Assembly (NCBI GenBank): GCA_009780625.1
Contig: WQZR01000002.1
Span: 1-34,088 of the forward strand
DNA length: 34,088 nucleotides
Direction of reading: 5' to 3'
Source of the DNA: Bacillota bacterium
GTDB taxonomy: Bacteria > Bacillota > Clostridia > Christensenellales > UBA1242
Of the stretch, positions 17,771 through 33,343 are shown piece after piece. The notes beneath the pieces are model-generated. The model had not been told where the DNA came from, searched no databases, and was given only the letters and a program-made list of their open reading frames with translations. The translations under genes and the position numbers were made by a program. Within the stretch, counting starts at the first letter, position 1, and each line of letters begins with the position of its first letter.

Positions 17771-17945
17771 AAGTTTGGTTGGGTAGGGGTGGAACACCTT
17801 GAACGCCTAAGGGCTGGAGAACCCTTTGAGCCGTTTACAATATTCTTTGAGGGGCTTGTTGCTCTCGTTATACCCTGGACAAAGTCGAAAAGAAAAGGCT
17901 ACTATAATGTGAGGGATGAGAGGGCAAAGTTTGTAAAGATAGATA

Positions 17946-17971
17946 AAGGGCAGTAATACTGCTCTTTTTTT
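17946..17971 (+). terminator. intrinsic terminator (plus strand); member of a 25-bp repeat pair
   Basis: gggcag-taata-ctgctc followed by a T7 run. Near-identical to 20200-20225. Confidence 0.6.
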
Positions 17972-17972
17972 G

Positions 17973-17981
17973 TGATATAAT
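17973..17981 (+). promoter_or_regulatory. extended -10 promoter TGaTATAAT, 6 nt before ATG 17988
   Basis: TGa + TATAAT, then ttcgac, then ATG. No SD. Confidence 0.55.
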
Positions 17982-17987
17982 TTCGAC

Positions 17988-18335
17988 ATGGCAACTTATC
18001 AAGAATTAATATATAAAGAAATAGGTGAAATAATTAAAATCGTCCAGTACATTGAATGGAATTTGCTTGGTAGATTAAAGCGAGATAATTTTGAAGAAAT
18101 GACACTCGGGCAAATAATAAAACTAATTCGCACAAAAAAAGTCCTTCACATAACTGCTATAGATGAGCTAGAAGAAATATTGAGAAAGAGAAATGACTTA
18201 GTGCATTCTTACTTTAAACGCAAAGATTTTGAAAAACATTGTAATAATGAATTTTTCCTTTCAAACGAATTGAGGTATCTTGAAAATTTTTGTGATCAGG
18301 TTCAAAAATTTAATGAGTGGCTTGTTAAAAATTAA
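17988..18335 (+). CDS. small HEPN-like protein (R-x4-H motif)
   Basis: 115 aa, predicted all-helical, with RNDLVH (R-N-x3-H) in the second half, as in HEPN RNase domains. Confidence 0.5.
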   Translation: MATYQELIYKEIGEIIKIVQYIEWNLLGRLKRDNFEEMTLGQIIKLIRTKKVLHITAIDELEEILRKRNDLVHSYFKRKDFEKHCNNEFFLSNELRYLENFCDQVQKFNEWLVKN

Positions 18336-18350
18336 TCCTCGCAACTAAAT

Positions 18351-18377
18351 AAAAAGAAGCCTTAGTGACTTCTTTTT
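18351..18377. terminator. bidirectional terminator between convergent genes
   Basis: aaaaagaag...cttcttttt hairpin flanked by A/T runs. It overlaps the stop of the minus-strand gene. Confidence 0.55.
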
Positions 18378-18864
18378 AGATACTGTGTTCATTAACAAAA
18401 GTTGAATTAATTTCTAGTTTATGCAACTTCATGTTAGCTACAATCATAAATCCCAATTCATACTTAAAGTAGCTATAACTGTCTGTCATTATTTTCAATC
18501 GCTCTTTGTCATCATCAAGTCCTTCTCTGTTGGTATCTTTTTTAATTTCTATACAAATTAGATTTCTAAATTCATTATTTTGGTCACTACTTCTTTTATG
18601 AACAATTAAATCTACAACAATTCTTCTATCGTCGTCAATAGTTTTAGGCAAATATTCATTGCCCTTAGCACCCCTGTTATACTCCACATCAACAAAGAAA
18701 TCTCTAAACTCAGAAGAGCTAACTTGTCTTTCGACATACATAGCAAATTTAGAACAAATGCATCTTTCACTTAAACCTCTAGAAATTAAATAACTTTCGT
18801 TATCATTGAAAGACTTGATTGCAAGTCTGACTACTTTTTCTAACTTTCTTTGTGTTTCTGTCAT
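18376..18864 (-). CDS. small PD-(D/E)XK-like nuclease-fold protein, hypothetical
   Basis: VVDLIVHKR...(20 aa)...ICIEIKKD fits hhhD-Xn-E-x-K. AAGGAG SD and TGcTATACT promoter lie upstream on the minus strand. Confidence 0.5.
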   Translation of the reverse strand: MTETQRKLEKVVRLAIKSFNDNESYLISRGLSERCICSKFAMYVERQVSSSEFRDFFVDVEYNRGAKGNEYLPKTIDDDRRIVVDLIVHKRSSDQNNEFRNLICIEIKKDTNREGLDDDKERLKIMTDSYSYFKYELGFMIVANMKLHKLEINSTFVNEHSI

Positions 18865-18902
18865 GCCGCTTTCTCCTTACTTGAATAGTATAGCATATTG
18901 TT

Positions 18903-18963
18903 ATCGGAAATATATATCGGAAATATGTGCAGATTTAGTATATTTCCTATACATATTTCCGAT
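18903..18963. promoter_or_regulatory. operator-like array: 2 direct + 2 inverted copies of ATCGGAAATAT
   Basis: ATCGGAAATAT at 18903-18913 and 18916-18926. Reverse-complement copies ATATTTCCtAT at 18940-18950 and ATATTTCCGAT at 18953-18963. There is a 13-nt phasing within each pair. The array sits in the divergent intergenic region upstream of the HTH-Fic gene. Confidence 0.6.
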
Positions 18964-18993
18964 AGTATGGTAGACTATGAAATAGGAGAGCGT

Positions 18994-19902
18994 ATGAAAT
19001 TTTTATCAGTAGCAGAAATTGCTGAAAAATTAAATCTGTCAGAAAGAAGAGTTAGAATGCTTTGTGCTGAAGGCAAGTTTGAAAATGCCTACCTTAAAGG
19101 TAAAACTTGGCACATACCAGAAGATTCGCAAAAGCCAGTTGATAGAAGAGTAAGCACTAAAACTCCAACGGGTGATTTAGGTGTAATCGATGAGCTTAAA
19201 AAACAAATAGATGCGTGTCGCCCTTTAACACAAGGAGAACGCGATAGGTTTAATGAAGAGTTTCTTGTTGAGTTTACTCATAACAGTAATGCTATCGAAG
19301 GAAACACTTTAACCCTAAGAGAGACAGCTCTTGTTTTGCAGGGAATAACAATCGACCAAAAGCCACTTAAAGACCATTTGGAAGCTATCGGACATAGAGA
19401 CGCTTTTAACTATGTTCTTGATATAGTGAAGCATAAGGAAGAACTTACCGAGTCAGTTATTAAAACCATTCATTCAATTGTATTGATGGATAAGCCAGAG
19501 GATAGAGGCGTTTACCGTAAAGTTCCTGTGACAATAGGTGGCTCTACATATACGCCACCACAACCTTACATAATACCGAAACAAATGGAAGAGTTAATGT
19601 ATAACCTTCAAGACTGGAAAAATACAAAACACATAGCTGAGCAAATAGCTTTGTTTCATTTAGTGTTTGAATCTATTCACCCATTTATTGACGGCAATGG
19701 CAGAACAGGTAGACTGCTTTTAAACCTGAAACTAATGCAGCAAGGCTATCCGCCAATTAACATTAAGTTTTCAGACCGTAGTAAGTATTACTCATGTTTT
19801 GAAAGCTATCATAAAACTGGCTCACCTAAAGCTATGATAAAGCTTGTAGCAAGCCTACTAGAAAAAGAAATGAAAGAGTATTTAAAGAAGTTTAAGGGAT
19901 AA
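18994..19902 (+). CDS. Fic-family protein (AMPylator-type) with N-terminal HTH and internal inhibitory motif
   Basis: HPFIDGNGRTGRLL matches the Fic core HxFx(D/E)GNGRxxR. SNAIEG matches the (S/T)xxxE(G/N) inhibitory helix. N-terminal SVAEIAEKLNLSERRVRMLCAEGKF is HTH-like. AGGAG lies 5 nt before ATG 18994; the 18898 extension was rejected. Confidence 0.85.
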   Translation: MKFLSVAEIAEKLNLSERRVRMLCAEGKFENAYLKGKTWHIPEDSQKPVDRRVSTKTPTGDLGVIDELKKQIDACRPLTQGERDRFNEEFLVEFTHNSNAIEGNTLTLRETALVLQGITIDQKPLKDHLEAIGHRDAFNYVLDIVKHKEELTESVIKTIHSIVLMDKPEDRGVYRKVPVTIGGSTYTPPQPYIIPKQMEELMYNLQDWKNTKHIAEQIALFHLVFESIHPFIDGNGRTGRLLLNLKLMQQGYPPINIKFSDRSKYYSCFESYHKTGSPKAMIKLVASLLEKEMKEYLKKFKG

Positions 19903-19930
19903 ACAAAATATTTATAAAGGAGTTTTAATT

Positions 19931-20170
19931 ATGGCAATTATAACAAAAATTGATAAGGGTGGAGAGAAAAAACTAACAAGGGCTATAACTTATTGCGAGG
20001 CTGAATATAATGAATATTTTGAAGGACATAAAAATGAAAAGTTTGTTGGGATACAAACCTTCGGAAGTAAAGATAGAGTTGATCAGGGAAAACAAAGCCA
20101 AGTTATTCATTTAAATAAGGAAACTGCAATAAAACTTGTTGAATTATTAAGAAAGTCTTTTAACCTATAA
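19931..20170 (+). CDS. hypothetical small protein
   Basis: 79 aa with AAGGAG SD, 28 nt downstream of the Fic gene. No motif recognised. Confidence 0.5.
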   Translation: MAIITKIDKGGEKKLTRAITYCEAEYNEYFEGHKNEKFVGIQTFGSKDRVDQGKQSQVIHLNKETAIKLVELLRKSFNL

Positions 20171-20199
20171 CAATATTAGATAACGAAACTGGTAGAACT

Positions 20200-20225
20200 A
20201 AGGGTAGTAATTAAACTGCTCTTTT
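20200..20225 (+). terminator. intrinsic terminator; second member of the 25-bp repeat pair
   Basis: gggtag-taattaaa-ctgctc + TTTT. Apart from one C/T change and a 3-nt insertion in the loop, it matches aagggcagtaatactgctctttt at 17946-17968. Confidence 0.55.
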
Positions 20226-20242
20226 ATTATCCAACAACATGG

Positions 20243-20316
20243 GCTAATAAATGCAACTCATTTATTAGTATTTAGCTAATAAATGAGTTGACAGGAGCTA
20301 ATTTATGTGGTAGTAT
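20243..20316 (+). promoter_or_regulatory. promoter TTGACA-17-TGgTAGTAT with repeated GCTAATAAATG operator-like motifs
   Basis: Perfect palindrome CTAATAAATG-caact-CATTTATTAG (20244-20268). GCTAATAAATG repeats at 20275-20285, abutting TTGACA (20288-20293). Variant GCTAATTTATG (20297-20307) lies in the spacer. Extended -10 at 20308-20316. Confidence 0.6.
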
Positions 20317-20348
20317 GAATTAACATATTTATACAGGAGGACAATAAT

Positions 20349-21122
20349 ATGGAAGACAATGTAAAAAAAGAAAAAGCAAAAAGTAAGGACTATCCTGCAC
20401 TTACACTTATGGCAGCAGTAGAGTTTTTGCAAGCTTTTAAAGATTACCCATTAAACAAACAAATCTCTTACGCTGTTGCGGCTAAGGTGAAAGGAGTATC
20501 GGAGACGACTAAGTCTTTTAGATATGCTATCAGCGCGGCAAGGCAGTATGGGTTGATTTCAACGGGAGGAAGTGCTTTCTCGTTTCTAGATGCGGGGAAA
20601 AAACTGATACGGCCAACTGATGACGCAGCAACAATTTCATCATTAAAAATGCAATGTTTTTCTAACCCGAAATTGTATGGAGAGTTGATCTCTCAATATA
20701 AGGGAAGATCGATACCAAACATCACGACACTTGAGAATCTTTTAGTAACTTATAATGGAATTATGGCTTCTGCTGCAAATACAGCTGCTCAAACATTCAT
20801 TGACACAGCCACTGAAGTTGGTGCGAATAAAAGTGGAGTTTTAGACTTAGATGTTGATGCTATCGAAGCAGTAGTATCTGGAACTGTTATGGAAGCGCAG
20901 CCAGAAAGAGTTGATGAAGTTTCAAAAGTTGCTGTTTCGGTAACTCCACAAAAAATGTTATTGGAAGAAGGGTTTGAAGCTCCATTAACTATACCTTTTG
21001 GAGAACAAAAAAAGGCTATATTATATATGCCGCAAAATGTAGAGAAAGATGATGCAGAATATGCACTCGAAATGATAAAGTTAATGTTTAAAAAGATTTA
21101 TGGGGTTGGAAAGAATGATTAA
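20349..21122 (+). CDS. uncharacterised protein with putative N-terminal winged-helix domain (operon gene 1)
   Basis: AGGAGG SD. The N-terminus (...SFRYAISAARQYGLISTGGSAFSFLDAGKKL) has a wHTH-like pattern. Ala/Val-rich linker. C-terminal LTIPFGEQKKAILYMPQNVEKDDAEYALEMIKLMF. No family recognised. Confidence 0.7.
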   Translation: MEDNVKKEKAKSKDYPALTLMAAVEFLQAFKDYPLNKQISYAVAAKVKGVSETTKSFRYAISAARQYGLISTGGSAFSFLDAGKKLIRPTDDAATISSLKMQCFSNPKLYGELISQYKGRSIPNITTLENLLVTYNGIMASAANTAAQTFIDTATEVGANKSGVLDLDVDAIEAVVSGTVMEAQPERVDEVSKVAVSVTPQKMLLEEGFEAPLTIPFGEQKKAILYMPQNVEKDDAEYALEMIKLMFKKIYGVGKND

Positions 21123-22077
21123 CGAAATAACAAGACTTTTTCAGTCAGCAGAAAAGACCATTGACAAGCCGATATTGCCATCATACATTTTTTATGTTTC
21201 TGACAAAGGAATTGATAAAGCAATTTATGATTTAGGCACAAAGAAAACACATTTGGAAATCTGCGAAGTTGAGCAGGAGTTTTTAATAGATATGGGCTTA
21301 ATGAACAAGGTTAACTATTCTTTGACTGACGAAGGAAAAGGATATTTCGAAACGCGATTCATACATGGAAATATTGCCGAAGCAGAATTATTTATAAAAC
21401 AGAAGCTTCAACAAAACCCTATAGTAAATCTTGTCTGCCAAGTATTCTATGGCAGAGGAAAAATCGGTTATCAGCAGTTAGTTGCTTTGCTTAACCATCA
21501 TAAAGTAGATGATCATGAACTTACCAGGCAAAATATTTTCCCCTTTCTCGTTTTGTTAAATAAGTTTAAAATATTGGTATTGGACAAGAAAAATGGGACA
21601 TTCTATTTAAAAGAACCACTTGTAAGTGATGTTGTGATTAAACAATATTATATATCGCCAAGTACTCCATTTAGTAATTTGCTTAATATAAAGAAAACTC
21701 TAAGGTCTTGCAAGGGTGACATTTATTGGATAGATAAACACTTTAGAAAAGAAGCATTCGAGATAATCATTGATGGGTTGTCACCAGATGGTGTGAAATC
21801 ACTGACTATTATATCGACGGATGAAAATGCTACTCAAAGTGCAAAAGCAGATTTCGAACTATTGAAACAGGAACTTGCCGCTCGGAACATTATTCTTGCT
21901 TGGCTAGTATTAACGGATAAAACTTTAAAGTTGCATGACAGATGGCTTATTTCTGACAATAATGTTTATAACATACCTCCAGTTCTGGCTATTATTAGAG
22001 GGCAAATGGCAGAAATAATTAAGACTGAAAGCAAAATAGATTTAAAACTACTTATACAAAATAGTGTAAGTGTTTAA
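21115..22077 (+). CDS. uncharacterised protein: two wHTH-like modules + C-terminal PLD-fold (MIT_C-like, HDR motif) module (operon gene 2)
   Basis: ATG 21115 overlaps the upstream stop by 8 nt. wHTH-like segments: LIDMGLMNKVNYSLTDEGKGYF and GYQQLVALLN...KILVLDKKNGTFYLK. The C-terminus (IYWIDKHF...LTIISTDEN...LKLHDRWLISDNNVYNIPP) resembles, from memory, the MIT_C module (..IxDPY...HDRxI..). Confidence 0.7.
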   Translation: MINEITRLFQSAEKTIDKPILPSYIFYVSDKGIDKAIYDLGTKKTHLEICEVEQEFLIDMGLMNKVNYSLTDEGKGYFETRFIHGNIAEAELFIKQKLQQNPIVNLVCQVFYGRGKIGYQQLVALLNHHKVDDHELTRQNIFPFLVLLNKFKILVLDKKNGTFYLKEPLVSDVVIKQYYISPSTPFSNLLNIKKTLRSCKGDIYWIDKHFRKEAFEIIIDGLSPDGVKSLTIISTDENATQSAKADFELLKQELAARNIILAWLVLTDKTLKLHDRWLISDNNVYNIPPVLAIIRGQMAEIIKTESKIDLKLLIQNSVSV

Positions 22078-22099
22078 AGAAGAATTTAAATAATAGAAA

Positions 22100-22126
22100 G
22101 CTGAGTTTACAAACTCGGCCTTTTTT
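22100..22126 (+). terminator. intrinsic terminator closing the two-gene operon
   Basis: gctgagtt-taca-aactcggc stem followed by a T6 run. Confidence 0.7.
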
Positions 22127-22198
22127 ATTTGTAGAATTTTGTAAGATAATAGGGTGAATTATGTTAAACTGGACCATTAGTAATTTGGAGAGTTTAGA

Positions 22199-23491
22199 GT
22201 GAAGGATAAGCCAAGGTTTACATTTATTGATTTGTTTGCAGGAGTTGGTGGTTTTCACCAAGCACTAGAATCGCTTGGCGGTGAATGTATTGCTTTTTCC
22301 GAAATAAATAGAGATTGTGTTGAAGTTTATAAAAACAACTTTCCAGGAGCAGAAGATATTGGCGATATAAATAAATGGAAGGAAAAAGGCTTACCTAAAT
22401 TTGATGTACTATGTGGTGGTTTCCCGTGTCAACCTTTTAGTAAAGCAGGAAGACAAGATGGTTTTAAAGATGAAAGAGGAAATTTTTTTGATGTAATAAT
22501 CGACATATTAAAAGAACATAAAGAGTGTAAATTTATAATTTTAGAAAATGTTCGTAATCTGTCTGATAAAACCGAAAACTGGGCACATATTCAAGAGAGA
22601 CTACAAGAGTTAGATTTTATTGTGACTGAGGAAGCTCTTGTTTTATCACCTTGCCAGTTTGGTGATCCGAGAATACCTCAAATAAGAGAAAGGGTTTATA
22701 TTCTTGGTATAAGGAAGGGAATAAGAGATAAAAAAAGATTATCAAATGGTTGTATCCATTTAGAAGAATTAGGGTTGCAGAACCTACCTAAAAAAGGCTC
22801 TTTGAGAAATGGTGATGCTTGGAATATTTTAAATTCAGAGGTAGTTGACAAAAAATATAACTTAGATGACAAAAAAGTTAAAATACTAAACATTTGGGAT
22901 GAATTTAGAAAGGGTACCAAATACGAACCAAGTAATGTTCCTATTTGGTTAGATTACTTCGGATATAAACTTGATGATAATGAGTTTTACAAAAAGAAAG
23001 ATAGAAATGGGAAAGTCTATAAAGAACTGCCAGAGTGGAAGCAGCACTTTGTTGATAAAAATAGAAAGTTTTATCTAAAGCATAAAGGGTTCATAGACGG
23101 GTGGATAGAAAAACATAATATGTTAGAAGAACATTCAGTTTACAAAAAATTTGAATGGAACTGTGGGGCTGACTATAAATTTCTAAAAGATACAATTATA
23201 CAATTCAGACACTCTGGTATTCGTGCGAAACGACCAAACTTTTTTCCTGCATTGGTTGCTATAAACAATACACCTGTTATTTGGGATAAGAGCAAAAACT
23301 TGTATAGATACATTACTCCACGAGAAGCTGCGAACTTACAAAGTTTCAAGCCCGATTATAAATTTGGAAAAAATGACTCCCAAACGTATAAACAACTTGG
23401 AAATGCTGTGAATGTTGAAGTTGTGAAAATATTAACTGAGAAATTGCTAGGCTTTGCGAAAGATGATTGGAATAAAAAGGAAGACAAATAA
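22199..23491 (+). CDS. DNA (cytosine-5)-methyltransferase
   Basis: Motif I FIDLFAGVGGF, motif IV GGFPCQPFS, motif VI ILENVRNL, motif X YKQLGNAVNV. GTG start with GGAG 8 nt upstream. Confidence 0.92.
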   Translation: MKDKPRFTFIDLFAGVGGFHQALESLGGECIAFSEINRDCVEVYKNNFPGAEDIGDINKWKEKGLPKFDVLCGGFPCQPFSKAGRQDGFKDERGNFFDVIIDILKEHKECKFIILENVRNLSDKTENWAHIQERLQELDFIVTEEALVLSPCQFGDPRIPQIRERVYILGIRKGIRDKKRLSNGCIHLEELGLQNLPKKGSLRNGDAWNILNSEVVDKKYNLDDKKVKILNIWDEFRKGTKYEPSNVPIWLDYFGYKLDDNEFYKKKDRNGKVYKELPEWKQHFVDKNRKFYLKHKGFIDGWIEKHNMLEEHSVYKKFEWNCGADYKFLKDTIIQFRHSGIRAKRPNFFPALVAINNTPVIWDKSKNLYRYITPREAANLQSFKPDYKFGKNDSQTYKQLGNAVNVEVVKILTEKLLGFAKDDWNKKEDK

Positions 23492-25026
23492 TGGACAGAA
23501 AAATAGAATTTAACATACAGCCAGAAGCTGGGATAATGAATGTGTTTTCTAGGCTTAATTATGAAGCACAATATGCTCTTGCTGAATTTGTTGACAATTC
23601 AACGCAGTCGTATTTTAATAATGAGAAAAAAATAAAGGATTCAAATAAGAACTTCGAGCGTCTAGAAATAGATATTGTTTACGATGAAGAAAAGGATAAA
23701 CTTTCGATCACTGACAATGCTTATGGAATGAATTTAGAAGAGTTTAAATATGCTATTCTTTTAGATTCAAAACATCCTAACCAACAAGGAAGAAATGAGT
23801 TTGGTATGGGGTTAAAAACTGCTGCAAGTTGGTTTGGAAACAATTGGAGTGTTTTTAGTACTCAACTAGGCAGAGATAAAATTTATTCGGCAAATGTAGA
23901 TATAAATCATCTTAAAAATAATAGAGTTAATACTATAGATATAATTGAATCGAAAACAACAATCAATAGTCATAGTACGATAATCGTTATAAGAGAATTA
24001 ACTAAAAAGTTAACAAGAAAAACCCTTAACAGAGTTAGAGACTTACTTGGTAGTATGTATAGAAGAGATATTGAATCTGGAAAAGTACAGATTACTCTGA
24101 ACGGAGAAATTATTACTTATCAACCTAATGCTGTTCTTCAGTATAAAGATAGAACGTGGAAGAAAGAATTAAATTTCAATGTTGAGTTTAGAGATAAAAT
24201 TTATCATGTGGACGGTTTTGTTGCAATTATGAATCCTGGTAGTTTTCGTAAGGCTGGGTTTGCCTTGTTTAGAAACAATAGAGTTGTGATTGGTGGAGAT
24301 GACTGCAATTATAAGCCGTTGGAAATATTTGGTCAACTTCAAAGCCAGATAGCATTAAAATTATTCGGTGAATTAAATATGAACTCGTTTCCTGTTAATC
24401 AAGCAAAAGCTGGTTTCATTTGGAACGACGGTCTAGAAGAAGAATTTATCAGAGTGTTAAAAGAAAATATAGAAGAATATCGAAAGATAGCTGATATGTC
24501 TAAACAATCACGAGAAGAAGTAGAGCAATTTTCACCGCAAAAATCTGAAAGCGTTGAACAAGATACTAAATTAGCTCTGGAAAAACTGCAGCGCGAACCT
24601 GATACTGAAATTGTGTTAGAGGAAGATAGCGATTTAGAAGAAACCGACTTGGAAGCTTTTCAAAAGAATTTTGTAGATTCACCTAGTGAAATCGAGAGTG
24701 TTGGAACACTTAGGAAGTATGAAGTACCATTAAATAATTTTGAAAAGATTAAACTATGCGTCACGTGGACAATTGGAAAAAGTGATTATTGGATTGACTT
24801 GAATGAAGAGAAAGAGGAGATACAGGTTATTATCAACATTGACCATCCATTCTTTAAACCTCATTCGAACGAGGAGCACTTTAAAAAAGTTTTAGAAAAG
24901 TTTGTTATTGCATTTGTTGTAGCCGAAAAGCAGGCACTTTCAACATCTGGAAAGGATGGCTATGTATCTCCGTCAGCTATTCGAAATAAAATTAACGAAA
25001 TTCTATCAAAAATGTCTAAGGAGTAG
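23491..25026 (+). CDS. GHKL-superfamily ATPase (HATPase_c_3 / MutL-Hsp90-like N-terminal domain)
   Basis: N box EFVDNSTQS, G1 ITDNAYGM, G2 FGMGLKTAASW. Start shares a base with the methyltransferase stop (TAATG). Acidic linker in the C-terminal half. Confidence 0.8.
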   Translation: MDRKIEFNIQPEAGIMNVFSRLNYEAQYALAEFVDNSTQSYFNNEKKIKDSNKNFERLEIDIVYDEEKDKLSITDNAYGMNLEEFKYAILLDSKHPNQQGRNEFGMGLKTAASWFGNNWSVFSTQLGRDKIYSANVDINHLKNNRVNTIDIIESKTTINSHSTIIVIRELTKKLTRKTLNRVRDLLGSMYRRDIESGKVQITLNGEIITYQPNAVLQYKDRTWKKELNFNVEFRDKIYHVDGFVAIMNPGSFRKAGFALFRNNRVVIGGDDCNYKPLEIFGQLQSQIALKLFGELNMNSFPVNQAKAGFIWNDGLEEEFIRVLKENIEEYRKIADMSKQSREEVEQFSPQKSESVEQDTKLALEKLQREPDTEIVLEEDSDLEETDLEAFQKNFVDSPSEIESVGTLRKYEVPLNNFEKIKLCVTWTIGKSDYWIDLNEEKEEIQVIINIDHPFFKPHSNEEHFKKVLEKFVIAFVVAEKQALSTSGKDGYVSPSAIRNKINEILSKMSKE

Positions 25027-25027
25027 T

Positions 25028-27169
25028 ATGGAAAAATATAAAATTAAAAGCGATGAAGAGATGAAACCTGTCAAATTCGGCAAGTTTTGTGAGATGGTTT
25101 ATGAGAAACAGAAGAAATCGTATGGTGAAGTTTCTGCGGATGAAACTAGAAAAAGAATAAAACATATTTATCAAGAATCACAGAAATTACTTTCTAGAAA
25201 AGAAGAACGAAATTTATTACTTGTGGGTAAAGTTCAATCTGGTAAGACATCTAATCTTGAGATGTTTACAGCTTTTGCCTTTGACAATGGGTACAATTTG
25301 CTAATTATATATGGTGGTTATGACGATACTTTGCTTAATCAAACTAACACCCGCTTTAAAGAAACATTTGAAATTCCTATTTCAGATTCTTTAGACTCAC
25401 CGCATCCAGCATTTTTTAGCACTTCTAAACACGGCAGCAAAGTAGATTTTGAATATCTTGATGATAGTGTTATTCAAGACATGGTTGAAAATAATAAACC
25501 AATAATTATAACTGCGATGAAAAGACCTAAAGCGCTCGCAAATATAAATTCGTTTTTGAAAAGACTAAAATTAAAAAACGTTAAAACTTTTATCATCGAC
25601 GATGAAGGCGACCAAGCAAGTTTGAATACAGCTAAAGATAAAGAAAACTTTGAAGAGTCATCTGCAACTTATAAAGCAATTTGCACAATGAAAGACTTAC
25701 TTGGAAATCCATTATATTTGTCAGTTACTGCCACACCGCAGGCAAATATATTTTCGCCTACGATAAGCAAACTTAATCCGTTAGATATTAAACTTATTGA
25801 CGCTGGAAATGGATATTGTGGTTCCGCGGTTTATCATCTTGGCGATCCAGATTTAATAACTGAGATTGATGATTTTGAAGATGAGGTTGACGGAAGTAAA
25901 ATGCCAGAATCTATGAAGTATGCAATAAATTACTATTTAATAGCTGCTGCAATAATGGATGAAAAAGGTATAGGTGGTGCTGATATTTTAATTCATTCAG
26001 CTAGAGAAGTCGCAATTCATAGAAGGATTTGTTCCTTTATTCAAACATACATTGATGAATTGAAAAATGCAATCAAGTTAGAACAAAAACTTGACATAGA
26101 TAACTTTCTAAAAGAATTAGAGTTTGTGTTTTATACTGAATTTAGCAAGACTATTCAAAAACAATACAATATTGCGGCGTTGAGGGAACGTATTTTTAAG
26201 GTTGTTAATAAGACATTTGTAATAATGAAAAACAACCCAGGAAATGCAAGTACGCTTCCTCTTGAACAATATAAACCTTACAAAATATTTGTTGGAGGCG
26301 ACTTACTACAGAGAGGTGTTACTTTTAAGAATCTAGTTGTCACATATTTTACTAGATGGGCTAAATCTGGAAACATGGATACTACTCTTCAGAGGGCAAG
26401 GTGGTTTGGGTATAGGGAAAAATTTATTGATTTATGTAAAATTTTTACTACAAACGAAATTCAAAGAGAGTTTACTAATCTTGCTGATATAGAAATTGAC
26501 TTATGGGATCAATTTGAAGGTATTCAAAATGGCGAACTTCAAATCGAAAATATCATTATTCCAGCGCAGGACTCTATCTTGAGACCAACAAGAAGTAATG
26601 TTGCAACATTTGCAAAGGTTGAGTTTGCAAGAAGATGGACTAAACAACAATTAGGTATATTTGATAAAAACACTGTCGATAAAAACAATAAAATTATTAG
26701 AGAATTTATTTCTAATAATAAATTCATTGAGTCAAACATTGCAAGAACTGATAAGGAATCTTCTTGCTCTTACGCGTTGGTTAAGACGGCTGATGTTAAA
26801 AAACTTATGGACGCTCTAGCACAGTCGATATTTTTAATGCAGCCATTTAGTCTTAATGCTCATATTATCGAACACTTATTAGCCAGTCAAAAAGAGATTC
26901 CAATTATACTCATGAAAGGTAATCGTGAGCGTAAATTTGATAGTTCTAACCGAATTAACAACATCCATCAAGGTCCAGATAAATCTGAGATTTCTGCAAG
27001 AAAATATATGGGTGATACTGAAGTTGTAATAGACAAAGATAAAATAAATATACAGATACACTATATTGTTCCAAAAAAAGAAGGAGCCGTAAGAGCCGAA
27101 ATTGGTCAGTATATGTTTGCTATATTTACTCCTGGAAAACAAAGTTATTATGTTAGAGGGAAATTATAA
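25028..27169 (+). CDS. Z1-domain protein (SF2 helicase-like P-loop NTPase)
   Basis: Walker A GKVQSGKTSN, Walker B/DExD-like IIDDEGDQAS, SVTATPQAN, QRGVTF, TLQRARWFGYR. AAGGAG SD; ATG 25028 lies 1 nt after the upstream stop. Architecture as recalled for Z1 proteins that neighbour C5-methyltransferases. Confidence 0.75.
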   Translation: MEKYKIKSDEEMKPVKFGKFCEMVYEKQKKSYGEVSADETRKRIKHIYQESQKLLSRKEERNLLLVGKVQSGKTSNLEMFTAFAFDNGYNLLIIYGGYDDTLLNQTNTRFKETFEIPISDSLDSPHPAFFSTSKHGSKVDFEYLDDSVIQDMVENNKPIIITAMKRPKALANINSFLKRLKLKNVKTFIIDDEGDQASLNTAKDKENFEESSATYKAICTMKDLLGNPLYLSVTATPQANIFSPTISKLNPLDIKLIDAGNGYCGSAVYHLGDPDLITEIDDFEDEVDGSKMPESMKYAINYYLIAAAIMDEKGIGGADILIHSAREVAIHRRICSFIQTYIDELKNAIKLEQKLDIDNFLKELEFVFYTEFSKTIQKQYNIAALRERIFKVVNKTFVIMKNNPGNASTLPLEQYKPYKIFVGGDLLQRGVTFKNLVVTYFTRWAKSGNMDTTLQRARWFGYREKFIDLCKIFTTNEIQREFTNLADIEIDLWDQFEGIQNGELQIENIIIPAQDSILRPTRSNVATFAKVEFARRWTKQQLGIFDKNTVDKNNKIIREFISNNKFIESNIARTDKESSCSYALVKTADVKKLMDALAQSIFLMQPFSLNAHIIEHLLASQKEIPIILMKGNRERKFDSSNRINNIHQGPDKSEISARKYMGDTEVVIDKDKINIQIHYIVPKKEGAVRAEIGQYMFAIFTPGKQSYYVRGKL

Positions 27170-27170
27170 T

Positions 27171-28082
27171 ATGGTAGAAAAAATCAAAAATAAAATTAAG
27201 CAGTTGAAACCAAAACAAGATTTTCTTTACCTAGTAGAAAAAATCAATAACAAAGCTGGTTTCTTCTTGTTGAACGACCAAATTGTTTTTGTTGAAGAAA
27301 ACTTCAATAATGAAAAAAAAGATTTAACAGAAACAACTCACTTAACCCTAAGAACATCGGTTGAAATCACTGCTGTTGAGAATGCACCTTCTTTCAAGGA
27401 AGGTTTATATAATTTTATTGTTTTTAAAAATCAAGTTGATAGTGAAGAATTTGAAAGTTTTGTGAACCTTTGCGTTCTATATGTGAAAGATAATACTATT
27501 GGGTTTTCAAAATTCTTTTTTTCTATATATAATCTATTTCAGAAGAAAGAAGAGAAGTATAAGAACTTAGTAGGATTTTGGGGGGAGTTAAAGTTTTTAT
27601 TACTCGCAGACAAATTGGGGGCGGATTTATCTCAAAATTGGCATAGACTGACAAACGATAAGTATGACTTTGTTGTAAGGAAATTTCCATTTGATATAAA
27701 GACCACTATAACAAAAGATGGTTTTGTAAAAATAAAACATAGCCAGATATTTAATGCTGACAATGTTTATCTTGTAGTTTGCGAAGCAGAGATAAGCAAC
27801 GCGGGAGAGACATTGATGGATTTGGTATCACAAATTAAAACTAACAAAACTTTTATTAGAAACGTTCCATTTTTATTAGCGTTAGAAAAAGAAATGACAA
27901 AAGTCTATAAAGAGGATGCTGAAAAGGAAAAATTCTCCTTGCTCGGTTTTAAGATTTTCTTCACTAAAGATATGCCTACGATACAAAACATTCCAAATAA
28001 CGTTATTGATGTAGAGTATAGGTATAATTACATGATGAACAAAAGTATTTCATTTAAAGATTTTGTCAAACTCTTAAAATAA
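27171..28082 (+). CDS. PD-(D/E)XK motif protein (putative nuclease effector)
   Basis: GFWGELKFLL ... DKYDFVV ... FDIKTT fits E...D...(D/E)xK as in the PD-(D/E)XK motif proteins found with Z1/GHKL genes. ATG 27171 lies 1 nt after the Z1 stop. Confidence 0.65.
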   Translation: MVEKIKNKIKQLKPKQDFLYLVEKINNKAGFFLLNDQIVFVEENFNNEKKDLTETTHLTLRTSVEITAVENAPSFKEGLYNFIVFKNQVDSEEFESFVNLCVLYVKDNTIGFSKFFFSIYNLFQKKEEKYKNLVGFWGELKFLLLADKLGADLSQNWHRLTNDKYDFVVRKFPFDIKTTITKDGFVKIKHSQIFNADNVYLVVCEAEISNAGETLMDLVSQIKTNKTFIRNVPFLLALEKEMTKVYKEDAEKEKFSLLGFKIFFTKDMPTIQNIPNNVIDVEYRYNYMMNKSISFKDFVKLLK

Positions 28083-28083
28083 T

Positions 28084-28107
28084 AAAAGACTGAGCAATCA
28101 GTCTTTT
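28084..28107. terminator. bidirectional terminator between convergent genes
   Basis: aaaagactga-gcaa-tcagtctttt. It overlaps the stop of the minus-strand Rep gene. Confidence 0.7.
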
Positions 28108-28829
28108 TTAATTCTCACAACTTTGATGTGTTCTTTGTCTTTGACTAGGCTGACTTTTGTATCACTGTCGAGTCTCATGTTTGAAAAGATGATATCGTCA
28201 AAGTCTTCGTCTTCCATGTAGAGAATAACCTTTTCTTTTTTGTTTAGGTTAAGAGTACGGTAGTAGTATCTTTTATTGTAGTTATCTAGTATGCAGGGTT
28301 CATATAACTGCTTAGTTAGGTATTTAAGACAATAGTTTATAAACTTGTGAGCTTCGGTTTTTGGAAAATGGATGATAGTTGAAAAGCCGAAATCGAATAG
28401 GGGAAGGTTGTAGACTTCTGCACCGTTTGAGCTCATCTCTTCGCCTGTGTGATAGTCTGTTGCTCTTTCCATATATTCTGTTAAATCAATGCTGCCGACG
28501 AGTATATGTAAATGTAGAGCCTTTTTTCCTTCTTCGTTCTTCTTTTTGTGCCGTTCTGGTATTGCTAAAAGTTTCACATCTTTGTTTATTCTTTGGAGCT
28601 TTTGACGGAAGAGTTTCCAAACATATTTGACGGCTTCGTCGTCGTATCTGTCAATAAGTTCGTCTGAAAAAGTTAAGGTTAGGAAATAGTCCCAATCGTT
28701 AGCTAATCCATATCCATAGAAATTATCTTTTGCTCGTCGACGACTTCGTCTTATATTTTCTTTAATCTTTTCCATATCAAATTGTTTATCGGTGAAATTG
28801 AAGAAATCTTTTTTACACGGAACAATCAT
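28098..28829 (-). CDS. rolling-circle replication initiator (HUH Rep) protein, orphan
   Basis: Motif 1 FLTLTF, motif 2 HLHILV (HUH), motif 3 YCLKYLTK (catalytic Tyr context), as in plasmid and Microviridae-like RCR Reps. AAGGAG SD. Confidence 0.7.
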   Translation of the reverse strand: MIVPCKKDFFNFTDKQFDMEKIKENIRRSRRRAKDNFYGYGLANDWDYFLTLTFSDELIDRYDDEAVKYVWKLFRQKLQRINKDVKLLAIPERHKKKNEEGKKALHLHILVGSIDLTEYMERATDYHTGEEMSSNGAEVYNLPLFDFGFSTIIHFPKTEAHKFINYCLKYLTKQLYEPCILDNYNKRYYYRTLNLNKKEKVILYMEDEDFDDIIFSNMRLDSDTKVSLVKDKEHIKVVRIKKD

Positions 28830-28934
28830 TCGTTGGTCATGCTCCTTTACAAATTATAATTATTGGTATTATATCATTTTTCGACATATTTCTAAAGACC
28901 TTTTTCCAAAGCTGAGCCAAATTTAACCAAAAAA

Positions 28935-28943
28935 TGCTATAAT
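28935..28943 (+). promoter_or_regulatory. extended -10 promoter TGcTATAAT for the R-M gene
   Basis: TGcTATAAT is followed by a 34-nt leader with AAGGAG at 28967-28972 and ATG 28978. Confidence 0.55.
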
Positions 28944-28977
28944 GAAAAAATGATAAGTTTTAACTAAGGAGAAGTCG

Positions 28978-31900
28978 ATGCTTGAAAGAGTGAGTGATGA
29001 GCAGTTAAGAAAAGCCGTTATTAAATATTTTAATGCTGTTAAAGAGAGGTCTGCTAAAAATACGGAAACATCTTACAATAGACCGATAATTGAGTTGGTT
29101 GAACTTTTTGGTTGTAAACCCGTTGATTTTTCTGGCGAGAGAAGTGGTATTGCTGGCGAAAATATTGATATAAAAATATGGCGAGCTGACGAAGACTTAA
29201 ATAAGACAGAGCCGTTCGCTGCTATTGAAGTTAAAAAGATTGGTGGAATTGATGAGAGAGCAAGAAGCCAAATTAAAACGGAAGCCAGCAGATATGGGAA
29301 TGTTATTTTAACAGATAATACAGAGTGGAGATTTTATGGTGCTGACGGCAAAATGTACAATGGCTTTGAGTTAATTAAAAAAGACGGCACAGAATTAAAA
29401 CTCGATGAAGAAAAAATAGAATTATTTATTCAATCTATTAAAAGTTTTGTTCTTGCCGATCCAGTGAACATAAGAAGCTCTGGAAAACTTGCTGAATATA
29501 TGGCAACCTACGCAAGAGATATTCGTGTGATAATAAATGGAATTTTACAAACTGATAGTAGTAAACCAATGTTTAACGAATTGTTTGCATTATACTCAAG
29601 ACTAAAACAAGAACTTTTACCAGAACTGAACATAGAAGAGTTTGCTGATATGTATGCTCAAACTATTGTGTATGGCTTATTTATTGCAAGATATAACGAT
29701 AAAGACTTAAAAACTTTTACTCTTGGCGAAGCGATTGCAAACTTATCGCAAGAGAGCCACTTACTTAAACAATTCTTTCAACACATAACAACATCGTCAA
29801 ATATACACCCAACCTTAAAGAATGTAGTAGAAAAGCTTTGTAAACTTTTCTCTATTTCAAACTTACCAGAGCTTCTCGATGAGTGTTCAAAAAAGGACAC
29901 AATCATTCACTTCTACGAAGATTTTTTGAGTTATTATGACATGGCAAAACGAAAAGCTTTTGGTGCATATTACACTCCATATCAAGTTGTTAGGTACATG
30001 GTTTCTATGGTTGATGAAATACTTGTCAACGAGTTTAAAGTTAATGGTGGACTTTCAAATAATGAAACAACAAATATCACAGTGAAATGCGATGAGTACC
30101 AATTCAAAAAGAATGACTGGCGAAAAGAAAAAGAAATTTCAGTTCCTCAAGTCGCAATACTAGACCCAGCTTGTGGAACGGGAACATTCGGTGCAGAAAT
30201 TATTAAGTTTATAAAAGAGAAATATTTTTCTGGTGGCAACTCTGCGTTTTATAAAAAATGGATACAAGACAAAAACGGTTTACTCTCTCGTTTGATAGGT
30301 TTTGAAATTATGATGACAAGTTATGTTGTTGCACACTTAAAGATAAGAAGAACAATCGCAGAAACTTTAGGCGAGCAACCAGACGAAATCTTGCCTAGCA
30401 ATATATTCTTAACAAACACACTAGCAGAGCCGAAATCTCTAATAGAGAAAAACCAACAACAGAGTTTCTTTGATTTTTCTGGTGCGATAACTGAAGAAGC
30501 GGAAAATGCTGATAAGTGGAAATCAAGAAGACCTATTAAGGTTATTATAGGAAACCCACCATATCTTGCTGCTTCCAAAAACCCTTTTGATATTACTGCT
30601 TATAAAACAGAAACAGATGGTGTAACAGATTTTAAAGAAAGAAAACACTGGCTCAATGATGACTATGTTAAGTTTATTCGTTTTGCAGAGCAACGCATTG
30701 AAAAAGACGGAAGCGGTATTCTTGCGTTCATTTCAAACAATGGCTATTTAGACAATCAAACCTTTAGAGGTATGAGAGCAAGTCTTTTAAGAACTTTCGA
30801 CAAAATATTTATCTTAGATTTACACGGAAACGCAGTTAAAAAAGAAACTGCACCAGATGGCTCTAAAGACGAGAATGTATTTGACATTCAACAAGGTGTT
30901 GGAATAATCATTGGAATTAAAACAACTCGAAACAAAGATTGGGCAAAAGTTTATCATGCTGACTTGTTTGGTACACGAGAAAATAAATTTTCTGCACTAG
31001 ATAAGAAAAACATTGTATTTAAGAAACTTGATATAGATACGAAAATGGCATATTTTATTCCGCAGAACGAAACGGGTAAAGATACTTATGAAGACGGGGT
31101 AAATATAAGTGAATTGTTTCTAACAAATGTAACGGGAGTTATGTCTGGAAATAATGATATATCACTTGCTTCAACAGAAAAAGAATTAAGAAAACGAATT
31201 GATATTGTTAATAATGCTTTAAATGAAGAACCTATTCAAAAACTTTGGGGGAGCTTTAGTCGTGGTCAAACGGCAGACAAAATACAAAAAGACTTATTAG
31301 ATAAAGAAGGAAAAATAACACCTATCGCTTTTAGACCATTTGAAGATAAATGGACATATTACTCTGGGACATCTTGCGGTTGGCTACTTTGGGCGAGAGA
31401 AAAGAAAACAATGGGACAATTGGTACATTCTTCGACAAGTCCTATTGGTAAGAATATTGCTTTTATTTATGGAAGAGCTGCACATATCTCAAATGACTTT
31501 GCTATGGTTTTTGTAAGCGACAAAATAATTGATAAAGGTTTATTAGATGTTGTACACCAAGCTTATATATCGCCGTTATATAATGCACCTAGTGGACTAG
31601 AAAAAGAATGGACACCAAACTTTAACAAAGAGCAATTAGACAAACTTACACAAAATTTAAAAAACAAACCGACACCAATAGAGATTTTTGACTATTGCTA
31701 TGGAGTTCTTTATGACCCTACATATCGAGAAAAATATAACGAGTTTTTGAAGCGAGACTTTCCAAGAGTTCCAGTTATAGAAAATGAAAAGACTTTTGAT
31801 AAATATAAAAACATTGGAAAATTACTAAGAGAACTCCACTTAATGCAAACAGAAGCAAAGTTTAATTTAGTTATTACTGGCACAAATCTAAAAATTGATT

Positions 31901-32121
31901 TAGTAAAATACACAAATGGGAAACTGCATATAAACAAAGAAACAACAATAGCGGGAATACCACAGAATGTTTGGAACTACTTTATTGGCGGTTATCAAGT
32001 TTTAGATAAATGGTTTAAATCTCATAAGGGCGAGGAACTTGACATCGGTAAATTCAACCACATTCAAAAAGTCGTTGGAATACTTGCCGAAACAATTAAA
32101 CTGCAAGATGTATTGAGATAG
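28978..32121 (+). CDS. MmeI-like type IIL/IIG restriction-modification enzyme (nuclease + N6-adenine methyltransferase + specificity domain)
   Basis: N-terminal D...EVK (GENIDIKIW...AAIEVKK) PD-ExK nuclease. YYTPYQVVRYMV; motif I DPACGTGTF; motif IV NPPY (IGNPPYLA). The C-terminal IGGYQVLDKWFKSHKG is typical of the MmeI/type ISP C-terminal domain. Confidence 0.85.
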   Translation: MLERVSDEQLRKAVIKYFNAVKERSAKNTETSYNRPIIELVELFGCKPVDFSGERSGIAGENIDIKIWRADEDLNKTEPFAAIEVKKIGGIDERARSQIKTEASRYGNVILTDNTEWRFYGADGKMYNGFELIKKDGTELKLDEEKIELFIQSIKSFVLADPVNIRSSGKLAEYMATYARDIRVIINGILQTDSSKPMFNELFALYSRLKQELLPELNIEEFADMYAQTIVYGLFIARYNDKDLKTFTLGEAIANLSQESHLLKQFFQHITTSSNIHPTLKNVVEKLCKLFSISNLPELLDECSKKDTIIHFYEDFLSYYDMAKRKAFGAYYTPYQVVRYMVSMVDEILVNEFKVNGGLSNNETTNITVKCDEYQFKKNDWRKEKEISVPQVAILDPACGTGTFGAEIIKFIKEKYFSGGNSAFYKKWIQDKNGLLSRLIGFEIMMTSYVVAHLKIRRTIAETLGEQPDEILPSNIFLTNTLAEPKSLIEKNQQQSFFDFSGAITEEAENADKWKSRRPIKVIIGNPPYLAASKNPFDITAYKTETDGVTDFKERKHWLNDDYVKFIRFAEQRIEKDGSGILAFISNNGYLDNQTFRGMRASLLRTFDKIFILDLHGNAVKKETAPDGSKDENVFDIQQGVGIIIGIKTTRNKDWAKVYHADLFGTRENKFSALDKKNIVFKKLDIDTKMAYFIPQNETGKDTYEDGVNISELFLTNVTGVMSGNNDISLASTEKELRKRIDIVNNALNEEPIQKLWGSFSRGQTADKIQKDLLDKEGKITPIAFRPFEDKWTYYSGTSCGWLLWAREKKTMGQLVHSSTSPIGKNIAFIYGRAAHISNDFAMVFVSDKIIDKGLLDVVHQAYISPLYNAPSGLEKEWTPNFNKEQLDKLTQNLKNKPTPIEIFDYCYGVLYDPTYREKYNEFLKRDFPRVPVIENEKTFDKYKNIGKLLRELHLMQTEAKFNLVITGTNLKIDLVKYTNGKLHINKETTIAGIPQNVWNYFIGGYQVLDKWFKSHKGEELDIGKFNHIQKVVGILAETIKLQDVLR

Positions 32122-32125
32122 AAAA

Positions 32126-32157
32126 AAAGCAACAGATTAACTGTTGCTTTCTTTTTT
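32126..32157. terminator. bidirectional intrinsic terminator
   Basis: aaagcaacag-attaa-ctgttgcttt, flanked by A7 upstream and T6 downstream. Confidence 0.75.
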
Positions 32158-32289
32158 CAAGAACCACCCTCTTTCGTCTCGCTGTGCGATGTGAGAATAG
32201 TTTATGAATGGTTTCTGTTGTCGTTCGACCACCAGCACTGGCACTCCTTTGAAGAAGAAATAGCCAACGGTGTTCAAACGCCAACACAC

Positions 32290-32367
<78 letters not shown>

Positions 32368-32391
32368 ATGTGTATTCTTTGCAGATTATTA

Positions 32392-32441: not shown

Positions 32442-32927
32442 ATGTCAAAAGAAATAGAAAGAGTGTTTTTGCTCGCTAAAAATGTAGATATAAAAAGTAT
32501 TATTGTGGGTGCTGAAAAGCAAGTGCAAACCACTGCATATTTAAACGAACCTGGTCTAAAAATGCGTCGTGTGAGAGTTGAAAACGGCGTGTATGTTTAT
32601 TGCGAAAAGGTGTATGACTTAGACAGCCCAACAACAAGAGACGAAAACGAAAGAGCATCTTGCCAAGAAGAGTTTGATGAACTGATTATGGAAGGTGCAA
32701 CATATATTCATAACGCGAGATATTTTGTGAAAATAGGAAAAGGTTTGGTTGCTGAGGTTGATGTGTTTGAAGATAACCTAAGTGGAAATGGTTTTGTTAA
32801 AATCGACGTTGAATTTAAAGCACAAAAAGAAAGCGACGCCTTCGTTCCGCCAAGCTGGTTTGGAAAAGAAATAACCGGAACGCCAAGTGAAAGACACAGA
32901 GAAGCACATTTAAAAGGACAGAAATAG
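32442..32927 (+). CDS. CYTH-domain protein (triphosphate tunnel metalloenzyme)
   Basis: The N-terminal EIERVFLL corresponds to the ExExK-type CYTH signature. Size and beta-rich pattern fit. Confidence 0.65.
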   Translation: MSKEIERVFLLAKNVDIKSIIVGAEKQVQTTAYLNEPGLKMRRVRVENGVYVYCEKVYDLDSPTTRDENERASCQEEFDELIMEGATYIHNARYFVKIGKGLVAEVDVFEDNLSGNGFVKIDVEFKAQKESDAFVPPSWFGKEITGTPSERHREAHLKGQK

Positions 32928-32929
32928 AA

Positions 32930-33343
32930 ATGAAAGATTTAAGAAAAAAAGTTGTAAAAAACGAATTTGAAGAATTGGCTTGCCAGATTAAACTTTGGGG
33001 GCAAGAGACAGACTTTGTTGTATATCTAGATGAAGAAGATGGGTGCGGAAAAGACATCTATTTTGAGTTGATTGAAGAACGTCTAGAATTTGTTGAAGGC
33101 AACAAGGGAATGCTGATTGAAGCAATGCTTGATGCAGTTTTTGAAGAGCGTGTGGACAAAACAAAAACAAGAGACGATTTCAAAAAAGATTTGTCGATTA
33201 TGGGTGCCTTTGTTGAAGCAGGGTTTGAAGATTATTTAGACATAAGCTTCACATTGCCTCCAGAATATTATGGAGAAGAGACATATATCGATGTTTGCGT
33301 GAACGAAGATAATGAAATCGAGAGCATTTCAGTAGAAAGTTAG
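32930..33343 (+). CDS. hypothetical acidic protein
   Basis: 137 aa, Glu/Asp-rich, starting 2 nt after the CYTH stop. No motif recognised. Confidence 0.55.
   Translation: MKDLRKKVVKNEFEELACQIKLWGQETDFVVYLDEEDGCGKDIYFELIEERLEFVEGNKGMLIEAMLDAVFEERVDKTKTRDDFKKDLSIMGAFVEAGFEDYLDISFTLPPEYYGEETYIDVCVNEDNEIESISVES

Follow-up and report, generated by a model that had tools for sequence, protein, structure and literature searches.

What is the function of an operon in which a cytosine-C5 methyltransferase gene is closely followed by genes for a MutL-like ATPase, a helicase-like motor and a nuclease? This question is raised by four genes in a 34,088-nt stretch of contig WQZR01000002.1 from an uncultured member of the Bacillota; this whole stretch is called the window below, and all coordinates refer to it. 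We consider it probable that they form an ATP-dependent restriction–modification-like defence operon, protected by 5-methylcytosine (m5C), of what we call the 'paraMORC / DEAD-Z1 / DUF4420' class. The four open reading frames (ORFs) are all on the + strand:

22199-23491, + strand: C5-cytosine DNA methyltransferase of the Dcm type, 430 aa (Pfam DNA_methylase 3.5e-70; TIGR00675 dcm 1.1e-64)
23491-25026, + strand: GHKL ATPase, MutL/MORC-like ('paraMORC'), 511 aa (Pfam HATPase_c_3 1.2e-16)
25028-27169, + strand: helicase-like DEAD-Z1 motor from superfamily 2 (SF2), 713 aa (Pfam Z1 1.3e-42)
27171-28082, + strand: DUF4420 nuclease of the PD-(D/E)XK type, 303 aa (Pfam DUF4420, putative PD-(D/E)XK, 1.1e-11)

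All four domain assignments, including Z1 and GHKL, had been proposed in an earlier note on this DNA and are supported by Pfam, and the close packing described there was read in the sequence exactly as stated. The methyltransferase gene starts with GTG, and its stop codon overlaps the start codon of the GHKL gene by 1 nt in a TAATG junction (caaaTAATGgac); the GHKL/Z1 junction is ggagTAGtATG (TAG-t-ATG) and the Z1/nuclease junction is ttaTAAtATG (TAA-t-ATG). At all three junctions, a purine-rich ribosome-binding site lies within the preceding gene. As judged from this layout, the four genes appear to be co-transcribed and translationally coupled.

In 2008, Iyer, Abhiman and Aravind reported operons of this composition (Biol Direct 3:8, PMC2292703), with a DCM methylase, a paraMORC GHKL protein, a superfamily II helicase with a Z1 domain and a novel nuclease of the restriction endonuclease (RE) fold. 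In that class the Z1 domain is C-terminal in the helicase and carries the motif DThhQXuRhFG, the RE-fold protein carries E-D-ExK, and a restriction–modification role was proposed in which the GHKL protein loops DNA between recognition and cleavage sites (PMC2292703). The window has the same four components; the helicase motif is present here as DTTLQRARWFGY, and E-D-ExK corresponds to E139, D166 and D/E175-x-K177. The window family also shares with the 2008 class the linked cytosine methylase and a patchy distribution that looks laterally transferred. Differences are small: the ExxxH signature of paraMORC2, one of the candidate subfamilies (2-5), is not obvious in the window GHKL protein, and AIPR and Vsr, which are drawn in some of the 2008 neighbourhoods, are absent in the window subfamily. 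On these motifs we place the window operon in the 2008 class as an ordinary if divergent member, in which nothing essential seems to differ.

The same arrangement was found far beyond this organism. In a scan of 185,579 species-representative genomes, one genome per species, 243 loci of this subfamily were collected and the best 80 were analysed, with synteny counted by tblastn. Methyltransferase, GHKL, Z1 and nuclease genes are colinear on one strand in 70 of these 80 loci; among the other ten, the methyltransferase gene has another position within the locus in four, contig ends truncate five, and one (L042) is exceptional. In a few loci the methyltransferase gene is found downstream or on the opposite strand, and every locus that is not cut by a contig end has an m5C methyltransferase except L042, where none is present within the 5.5 kb available upstream. 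Because the same genes occur in the same order in 70 of 80 loci from different phyla, the four-gene arrangement is far beyond chance. Median junctions are 0, +2 and -1 nt for methyltransferase/GHKL, GHKL/Z1 and Z1/nuclease, respectively, values for which the choice of start codons favours short gaps.

Nine or more phyla are represented among the related loci (with Bacillota, Bacteroidota, Spirochaetota, Actinomycetota, Verrucomicrobiota, Pseudomonadota as Alphaproteobacteria, Cloacimonadota, Mycoplasmatota and Gastranaerophilales), which come mainly from gut or rumen genomes, while cultured carriers include Xylanibacter brevis ATCC 19188, Olsenella intestinalis and two Paenibacillus species. 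A plasmid of Rathayibacter festucae carries the same operon, annotated as dcm, ATP-binding protein, Z1 domain-containing protein and PD-(D/E)XK motif protein; by Pfam, its ATP-binding protein is HATPase_c_3 and its PD-(D/E)XK protein is DUF4420. Such patchy spread across phyla and onto a plasmid fits a mobile defence module. The window region itself gave no match to plasmids by megablast.

Motif conservation in the four proteins was assessed in alignments with 67-76 relatives. In the methyltransferase, motifs I (DLFAGVGGF), IV (GFPCQ), VI (ENV), VIII (QxRxR) and X (GNAVNV) are intact, with the catalytic Cys in the PCQ of motif IV, and the core resembles M.HhaI (2.8e-39). The variable region of ~190 aa (residues 176-369), the presumed target-recognition domain, has no match among solved methyltransferases, and across the family loci it keeps a mean identity of 39% together with conserved motifs.

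The GHKL protein contains the motifs ExxDN, DxAxGM and GRNEFGMGLKTAA, and E32, D35, N36, D75, G79, GMGLKTAA, T163 and K306 are invariant (38-71 relatives). Residues 190-330 are conserved and include the invariant Q304-A-K306, in which K306 is a candidate for the S5 lysine; beyond an acidic linker of low conservation (336-410) comes a conserved C-terminal domain of ~100 aa with the motif N-x-x-H-x-F-F. Relatives number 481 cluster representatives at E ≤ 1e-30. A PDB sequence search with this protein returned no match, and similarity to MutL beyond the GHKL fold was not detectable by that search.

For the nuclease, an alignment of 60 sequences shows conservation of E139, D166 and (D/E)175-x-K177, with G135, G138, E139, K177, H190 and Q192 invariant. 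Its AlphaFold2 (AF2) model (predicted local distance difference test score, pLDDT, 91.6) consists of an N-terminal beta domain (~19-85), long helices (92-148) bearing E139, and a C-terminal alpha/beta core bearing D166 and (D/E)175-x-K177. The nuclease profile had no match in a PDB sequence search.

The Z1 protein has the motifs expected of an SF2-like motor, i.e. Walker A (GKVQSGKTSN), motif II (IDDEGDQ), motif III (SVTATP, with TAT) and motif VI (QRARWFGYR), and the segment D451-TTLQRARWFG-Y462 is invariant among relatives; a C-terminal domain of ~190 aa follows. PADLOC matches it to Helicase_II (7.2e-48), a REBASE-derived model for 'Type II helicase domain protein'. Its AF2 model (pLDDT 81) matches the SF2 helicases and translocases RIG-I, Mfd, Hef, PriA, UvrB and EcoR124I HsdR with E from 1e-8 to 1e-6; a PDB sequence search with its profile gave no match. 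The nearest relative is 57-58% identical, and there are thousands of relatives in all.

This motor connects the operon to the closest characterised relatives, CglI, NgoAVII and BceSIV, which were not named in the earlier note. These systems consist of an m5C methyltransferase, an R-subunit with PLD and B3 domains and a DEAD-Z1 ATPase (PMC4267653, PMC5737866, PMC5861437). For CglI and NgoAVII, cleavage requires nucleoside triphosphate hydrolysis (PMC4267653, PMC5737866, PMC5861437), and in CglI it is ATP-dependent translocation of the DEAD-Z1 subunit (H.CglI) on double-stranded DNA that activates cleavage (PMC5861437, PMC4267653). By BLASTP, the window Z1 protein shares 26% identity with N.NgoAVII (L082:5980-7869) over 513 columns (E 3e-33, residues 34-531); thus the whole motor aligns whereas the C-terminal domain does not, and both proteins match Pfam Z1. 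In the gonococcal genome the NgoAVII locus is equally tight, with M, the PLD/B3 R-subunit and the DEAD-Z1 subunit in order and with M overlapping R by 4 nt. All three systems resemble the window in having an m5C methyltransferase gene followed by packed restriction genes and in having the nuclease as a separate polypeptide.

The likeness ends at the nuclease and the GHKL protein. In CglI, NgoAVII and BceSIV the nuclease and reader are combined in PLD and B3-like domains, whereas the window has a DUF4420 protein with an unrelated N-terminal domain; the NgoAVII R-subunit matches RE_NgoFVII (3e-46) and RE_NgoFVII_C (6e-46), and neither of these Pfam families matches the window nuclease. Moreover, these systems have no GHKL ATPase, whereas in the window its gene stands between those of the methyltransferase and the motor. 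By comparison of the proteins, the window operon is thus CglI-like as regards the motor and does not belong to the CglI group. Between the window methyltransferase and M.NgoAVII only the catalytic core is common; since the variable regions cannot be aligned, the specificity of the window enzyme is probably not GCSGC.

Three links support the restriction-like reading: essentially all complete related loci include an m5C methylase, NgoAVII has an ATPase subunit homologous to the Z1 protein, and the operon lies in a defence island (see below). Such obligate linkage would be expected if the three other proteins, called the core hereafter, were toxic without methylation. In the mechanism that we propose, the methyltransferase would act alone, as in Type II systems and CglI, and would mark host DNA by methylating cytosine at C5 within a short motif. 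The GHKL, Z1 and nuclease proteins would assemble on target DNA that lacks this methylation; the DEAD-Z1 protein would hydrolyse ATP and translocate on double-stranded DNA like its homologue H.CglI, the GHKL protein would dimerise on ATP as a MutL-like clamp or matchmaker that links recognition of the site, loading of the motor and activation of the nuclease, possibly looping DNA, and the DUF4420 protein would make the double-strand break. The sequence reader could be the nuclease's N-terminal beta domain or the C-domain of either the GHKL or the Z1 protein.

Control of a PD-(D/E)XK nuclease by a paraMORC-type GHKL ATPase has a parallel in type I-D Shedu, where in the paraMORC3 protein VcSduA mutants of the ATPase and of the nuclease abolish defence (PMC12137116). 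Such control, which the window may share, has been shown experimentally for Shedu; there it takes place in a single polypeptide with DUF4263 and with no helicase or methylase, whereas the window has separate genes, DUF4420, Z1 and a methyltransferase.

How the methyltransferase relates to the core was examined by co-evolution in 56 loci with all four proteins at full length, in which pairwise identities were compared by Spearman correlation. Between all regions of GHKL, Z1 and nuclease proteins the correlation is 0.68-0.88, and for the two core pairs submitted to a Mantel test (rho 0.78 and 0.88) p is ≤0.0005. For the methyltransferase against core regions rho is only 0.01-0.18. The core forms two deeply separated clades: Z1 proteins are 53% identical within a clade and 31% identical across the two, whereas methyltransferase identity is 51% in both comparisons, and one methyltransferase cluster pairs with both clades. 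Co-evolution of the GHKL, Z1 and nuclease proteins fits a physical complex, and a methyltransferase that barely tracks the core and serves both clades fits a free-standing modification enzyme. Hence the methylase is probably an independent, exchangeable module of one family with one or a few related specificities.

These data bear directly on a Type III- or BREX-like organisation, in which the methyltransferase would be a stoichiometric subunit that supplies target recognition and the other three proteins would need no reader of their own. The TAATG overlap of the methyltransferase and GHKL genes, with a junction that is tight in most relatives (median 0 nt), would suit such a subunit, as would a core in which no reader domain is identified and no domain co-varies with the methyltransferase variable region; that region is also unusually long and, with its family-conserved motifs, could include a docking surface. 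However, an obligate interface normally leaves a co-evolution signal, whereas the correlation of methyltransferase and core (rho 0.01-0.18) is far from that among core proteins (0.7-0.9) and a single methyltransferase cluster goes with both core clades despite a Z1 identity of 31% between them. Moreover, the methyltransferase gene can lie downstream or on the other strand, and CglI and NgoAVII recognise their sites through the R-subunit, with M not reported in the complex (PMC4267653). We therefore regard this organisation as decidedly unlikely.

In the preferred restriction-like reading with a free-standing methylase, a further comparison is with the Mza defence system, whose kinship to this operon the earlier note had suggested. 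MzaB, MzaC and MzaD (NF041932-NF041934) are the sole NCBIfam matches for the GHKL, Z1 and nuclease proteins and follow the same gene order, which bears out that kinship. The scores of 26.4, 124.1 and 16.4 bits lie far below the equivalog cut-offs of 850, 1500 and 420, with E of 2.1e-6 for MzaB and 0.0039 for MzaD; by PADLOC, MzaB (0.0021) and MzaC (1.9e-30) both match partially. MzaC is larger than the window protein, whose match begins at position 427 of 806 in the model. No neighbour of the operon, which is closed by terminators on both sides, matches MzaA or MzaE in PADLOC or NCBIfam. The Mza system, ascribed to Gao et al. (2020), reportedly has no methylase and ends with an AIPR protein. 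By these scores, the three non-methylase proteins are relatives of Mza and not members of it.

The kinship invites an explanation in which defence, or abortive infection, is independent of methylation: the three-protein engine would sense some sign of a phage (for instance DNA ends, intermediates of replication or one of its proteins), and the methylase would be an accessory, e.g. for protection against neighbouring Type IV enzymes or in a separate epigenetic role. The colinear MzaB, MzaC and MzaD matches favour it, as do the independent evolution of the methyltransferase and the existence of Z1 and DUF4420 pairs without GHKL, such as that of locus L085, in which the nearest cytosine methyltransferase is ~3 kb downstream beside an AlwI-family restriction gene. 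But dispensability is hard to square with the presence of an m5C methyltransferase in essentially every complete locus of the subfamily, and here this gene comes first in the operon and is translationally coupled by its junction. The Mza scores below cut-off and the missing MzaA and MzaE matches also count against it, and the use of one methyltransferase family throughout, with the 39% mean identity even in the variable region, implies a dedicated partner. We thus hold an Mza-like, methylation-independent function to be very unlikely.

Because the earlier note had remarked that this copy lacks AIPR and Vsr, both were looked for: neither domain was found in the scanned ORFs of the window (most ORFs of at least 100 aa, on coding strands), in agreement with the note, and neither is among the recurrent neighbours annotated in the 80 nearest loci. 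Their absence is therefore normal for this subfamily. It also touches on a reading of the operon as a repair module, in which the MutL-like ATPase, the helicase and a MutH/Vsr-like nuclease would fix T:G mismatches arising from deamination of m5C, as an analogue of the Dcm–Vsr pair. The components parallel MutL–UvrD–MutH/Vsr, where a GHKL ATPase, a helicase and a PD-(D/E)XK nuclease go with a methylation mark, a likeness already drawn by Iyer et al. (PMC2292703); in a subfamily without Vsr another factor might cover that need, and NUDIX genes accompany the system at six loci. However, we see a functional analogy only: no MutS-like or Vsr-like mismatch sensor is present, with no Vsr domain in any scanned ORF of the window, and the helicase is an SF2 DEAD-Z1 protein, not a superfamily 1 UvrD. 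In addition, the characterised homologues nearest to the motor are subunits of restriction enzymes, the relatives in Mza carry an anti-phage annotation, and a patchy, horizontally transferred look with residence in mobile defence islands and on a plasmid is typical of defence. As a result, a role in repair seems highly improbable.

Several observations nevertheless weigh against restriction licensed by m5C, the reading that we prefer. Full-text literature search found no experimental study of a Dcm-GHKL-Z1-DUF4420 system, and in the literature searched DUF4420 is named in computational work only. Foldseek of the nuclease model against PDB gave nothing below E 0.5, with EcoRV and Hjc appearing at E>1 only. 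The role assigned to the GHKL protein is argued solely by analogy with MutL. No DNA-reading domain was identified in the core proteins, and none of the three candidate readers (the N-domain of the nuclease and the C-domains of the GHKL and Z1 proteins) co-varies with the variable region of the methyltransferase (rho 0.01-0.05, p 0.15-0.35), so that a matching sequence reader is undemonstrated unless the whole family has one specificity. The homologous Mza core of Gao et al. (2020) reportedly defends without a methylase, so that the window core may not depend on methylation status as a signal. The N-terminal domain of the nuclease was also considered as a PUA/SRA-like m5C reader, and no evidence for this was found.

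A methyltransferase uncoupled in evolution from the core, together with the lack of a reader domain among the findings, allows a bolder version of restriction. Here the GHKL, Z1 and DUF4420 proteins would be a self-contained MutL/helicase/MutH-like engine that has no reader of its own and is common to the Mza system, which reportedly is methylase-free; the methyltransferase would be an exchangeable licence module, and discrimination would come from m5C sensing or transient contact with the methyltransferase, not from a matched restriction subunit. We think this version unlikely.

The limits of the operon and its start signal were read as follows:

22100-22128, + strand: intrinsic-terminator-like hairpin (22100-22119) with an 8-bp stem, 4 GC pairs and a T-run (CTTTTTTATT tail)
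22187-22192, + strand: Shine–Dalgarno sequence GGAGAG, 6 nt 5′ of the methyltransferase GTG, read in the sequence
28084-28107, both strands: bidirectional terminator-like hairpin with a 10-bp stem, common to the convergent Rep-like gene

The first hairpin closes an upstream two-gene operon and is the 5′ boundary of the four-gene unit, and the last is its 3′ boundary. A scan flagged no promoter in the 79-nt leader of the operon, 22129-22198 included.

A 51.8-kb contig from a metagenome contains the window. The flanking genes encode SpoVAD, SpoVAC/SpoVAEB, a SpoIIAB-like kinase with a sigma factor, a class A penicillin-binding protein, acetate kinase and ThiI, and they place the locus on the chromosome of a spore-forming, uncultured Bacillota organism. 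The operon lies in a low-GC island (17900-32370) with G+C of 0.30-0.34 compared with 0.36-0.40 in the flanks. The 3′ end of a tRNA-Met gene (32291-32367, - strand) marks where this island stops; neither an integrase gene nor att-like direct repeats of at least 16 nt were found for it. Its content (a Fic gene, a two-gene operon, the four-gene system, a Rep-like gene and a Type IIG enzyme) gives it the look of a defence island, in which the four-gene operon stands between the SoFic-like Fic gene and the Type IIG enzyme.

The Fic gene (18898-19902, + strand), which encodes a helix-turn-helix–Fic protein, matches Fic (3.6e-22) and, in PADLOC, PDC-S04 (2.7e-42) and SoFic (1.8e-34), and is probably a defence gene of the SoFic type. 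Fic genes are also near the system in seven related loci (L040, L048, L054, L061, L066 and L077 among them). The upstream two-gene operon (20349-22077, + strand) encodes proteins of 257 aa and 325 aa in genes that overlap by 23 nt, without a Pfam, NCBIfam or PHROG match; the second protein has a faint PADLOC match to PDC-S05 (0.0045). The earlier note had this operon preceding the system, as it does, but an association between the two does not hold: a terminator lies between them and no homologue occurs in any of the 80 related loci, so that it was rejected as a part of the system. It may be an independent defence candidate.

On the other side, a rolling-circle Rep-like gene (28098-28829, - strand; PF23343 REP_ORF2-G2P 1.3e-10, phrog_3419 7e-9) separates the four-gene system from the Type IIG enzyme, and may be the remnant of an integrated single-stranded DNA phage or plasmid. 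The Type IIG enzyme (28978-32121, + strand) is complete, with 1047 aa and Eco57I, N6_Mtase and Type_ISP_C domains (PADLOC REase_MTase_IIG 1.7e-192), and is a second, independent restriction–modification system of the island. Beyond the tRNA gene (32442-33343, + strand, and past 33459) there are two small genes, one of which matches phrog_6660 (2.4e-15), and then, in the parent contig, an ORF of 2729 aa that extends beyond the window.

Several genes accompany the system in some of the related loci. In 15 of 78 loci (e.g. L006:~7480-7790, L008 and L010) the nuclease gene is directly followed, on its own strand, by a gene for a protein of ~100 aa without a Pfam match, which may be an optional fifth component and which the window copy does not have. 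MTaX1 ('methylase-associated X1', PF20296) occurs either as a gene of ~190 aa between the methyltransferase and GHKL genes or fused to the GHKL N-terminus in proteins of 700-740 aa (L035, L042, L045, L049 and L051; proteins P0241, P0336 and P0385). Both forms are consistent with an optional adaptor that joins the methylase to the core; the window copy is without it. SLFN-g3/DUF2075 helicases are found at eight loci, and HNH_2 is seen in addition to the six NUDIX loci. An AspBHI-like, m5C-dependent Type IV enzyme (RE_AspBHI_N 1.7e-52 with Mrr_cat) is present at eight loci (L003, L004, L009, L012 and others), where it and the adjoining m5C operon must have non-overlapping specificities; the pairing of a methylating system with a methylation-dependent enzyme is curious.

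Two plasmid loci depart further from the common plan. L085, on Priestia aryabhattai plasmid NZ_CP024036.1, encodes an 890-aa Z1 protein and a PD-(D/E)XK motif protein with no GHKL gene, beside an AlwI-type restriction–modification pair. L084, on Hymenobacter plasmid NZ_CP095048.1, encodes dcm, GHKL, Z1, a 193-aa protein and an HNH endonuclease that replaces DUF4420.

The interest of this locus lies in a class known from computational prediction rather than in this copy. What the analysis contributes is a methylase decoupled from a tightly co-evolving three-protein core, which was not found described in the literature; otherwise this copy adds little. The class is widespread, with hundreds of genomes, cultured strains and plasmids. 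It offers the simplest setting for a MORC-like GHKL ATPase that goes with a methylation mark, a motor and a nuclease, and the question of how these work together bears on eukaryotic MORC proteins. If the engine without its own reader were real, it would be a new mode of restriction and the closest prokaryotic model for the response of eukaryotic MORC ATPases to DNA methylation.

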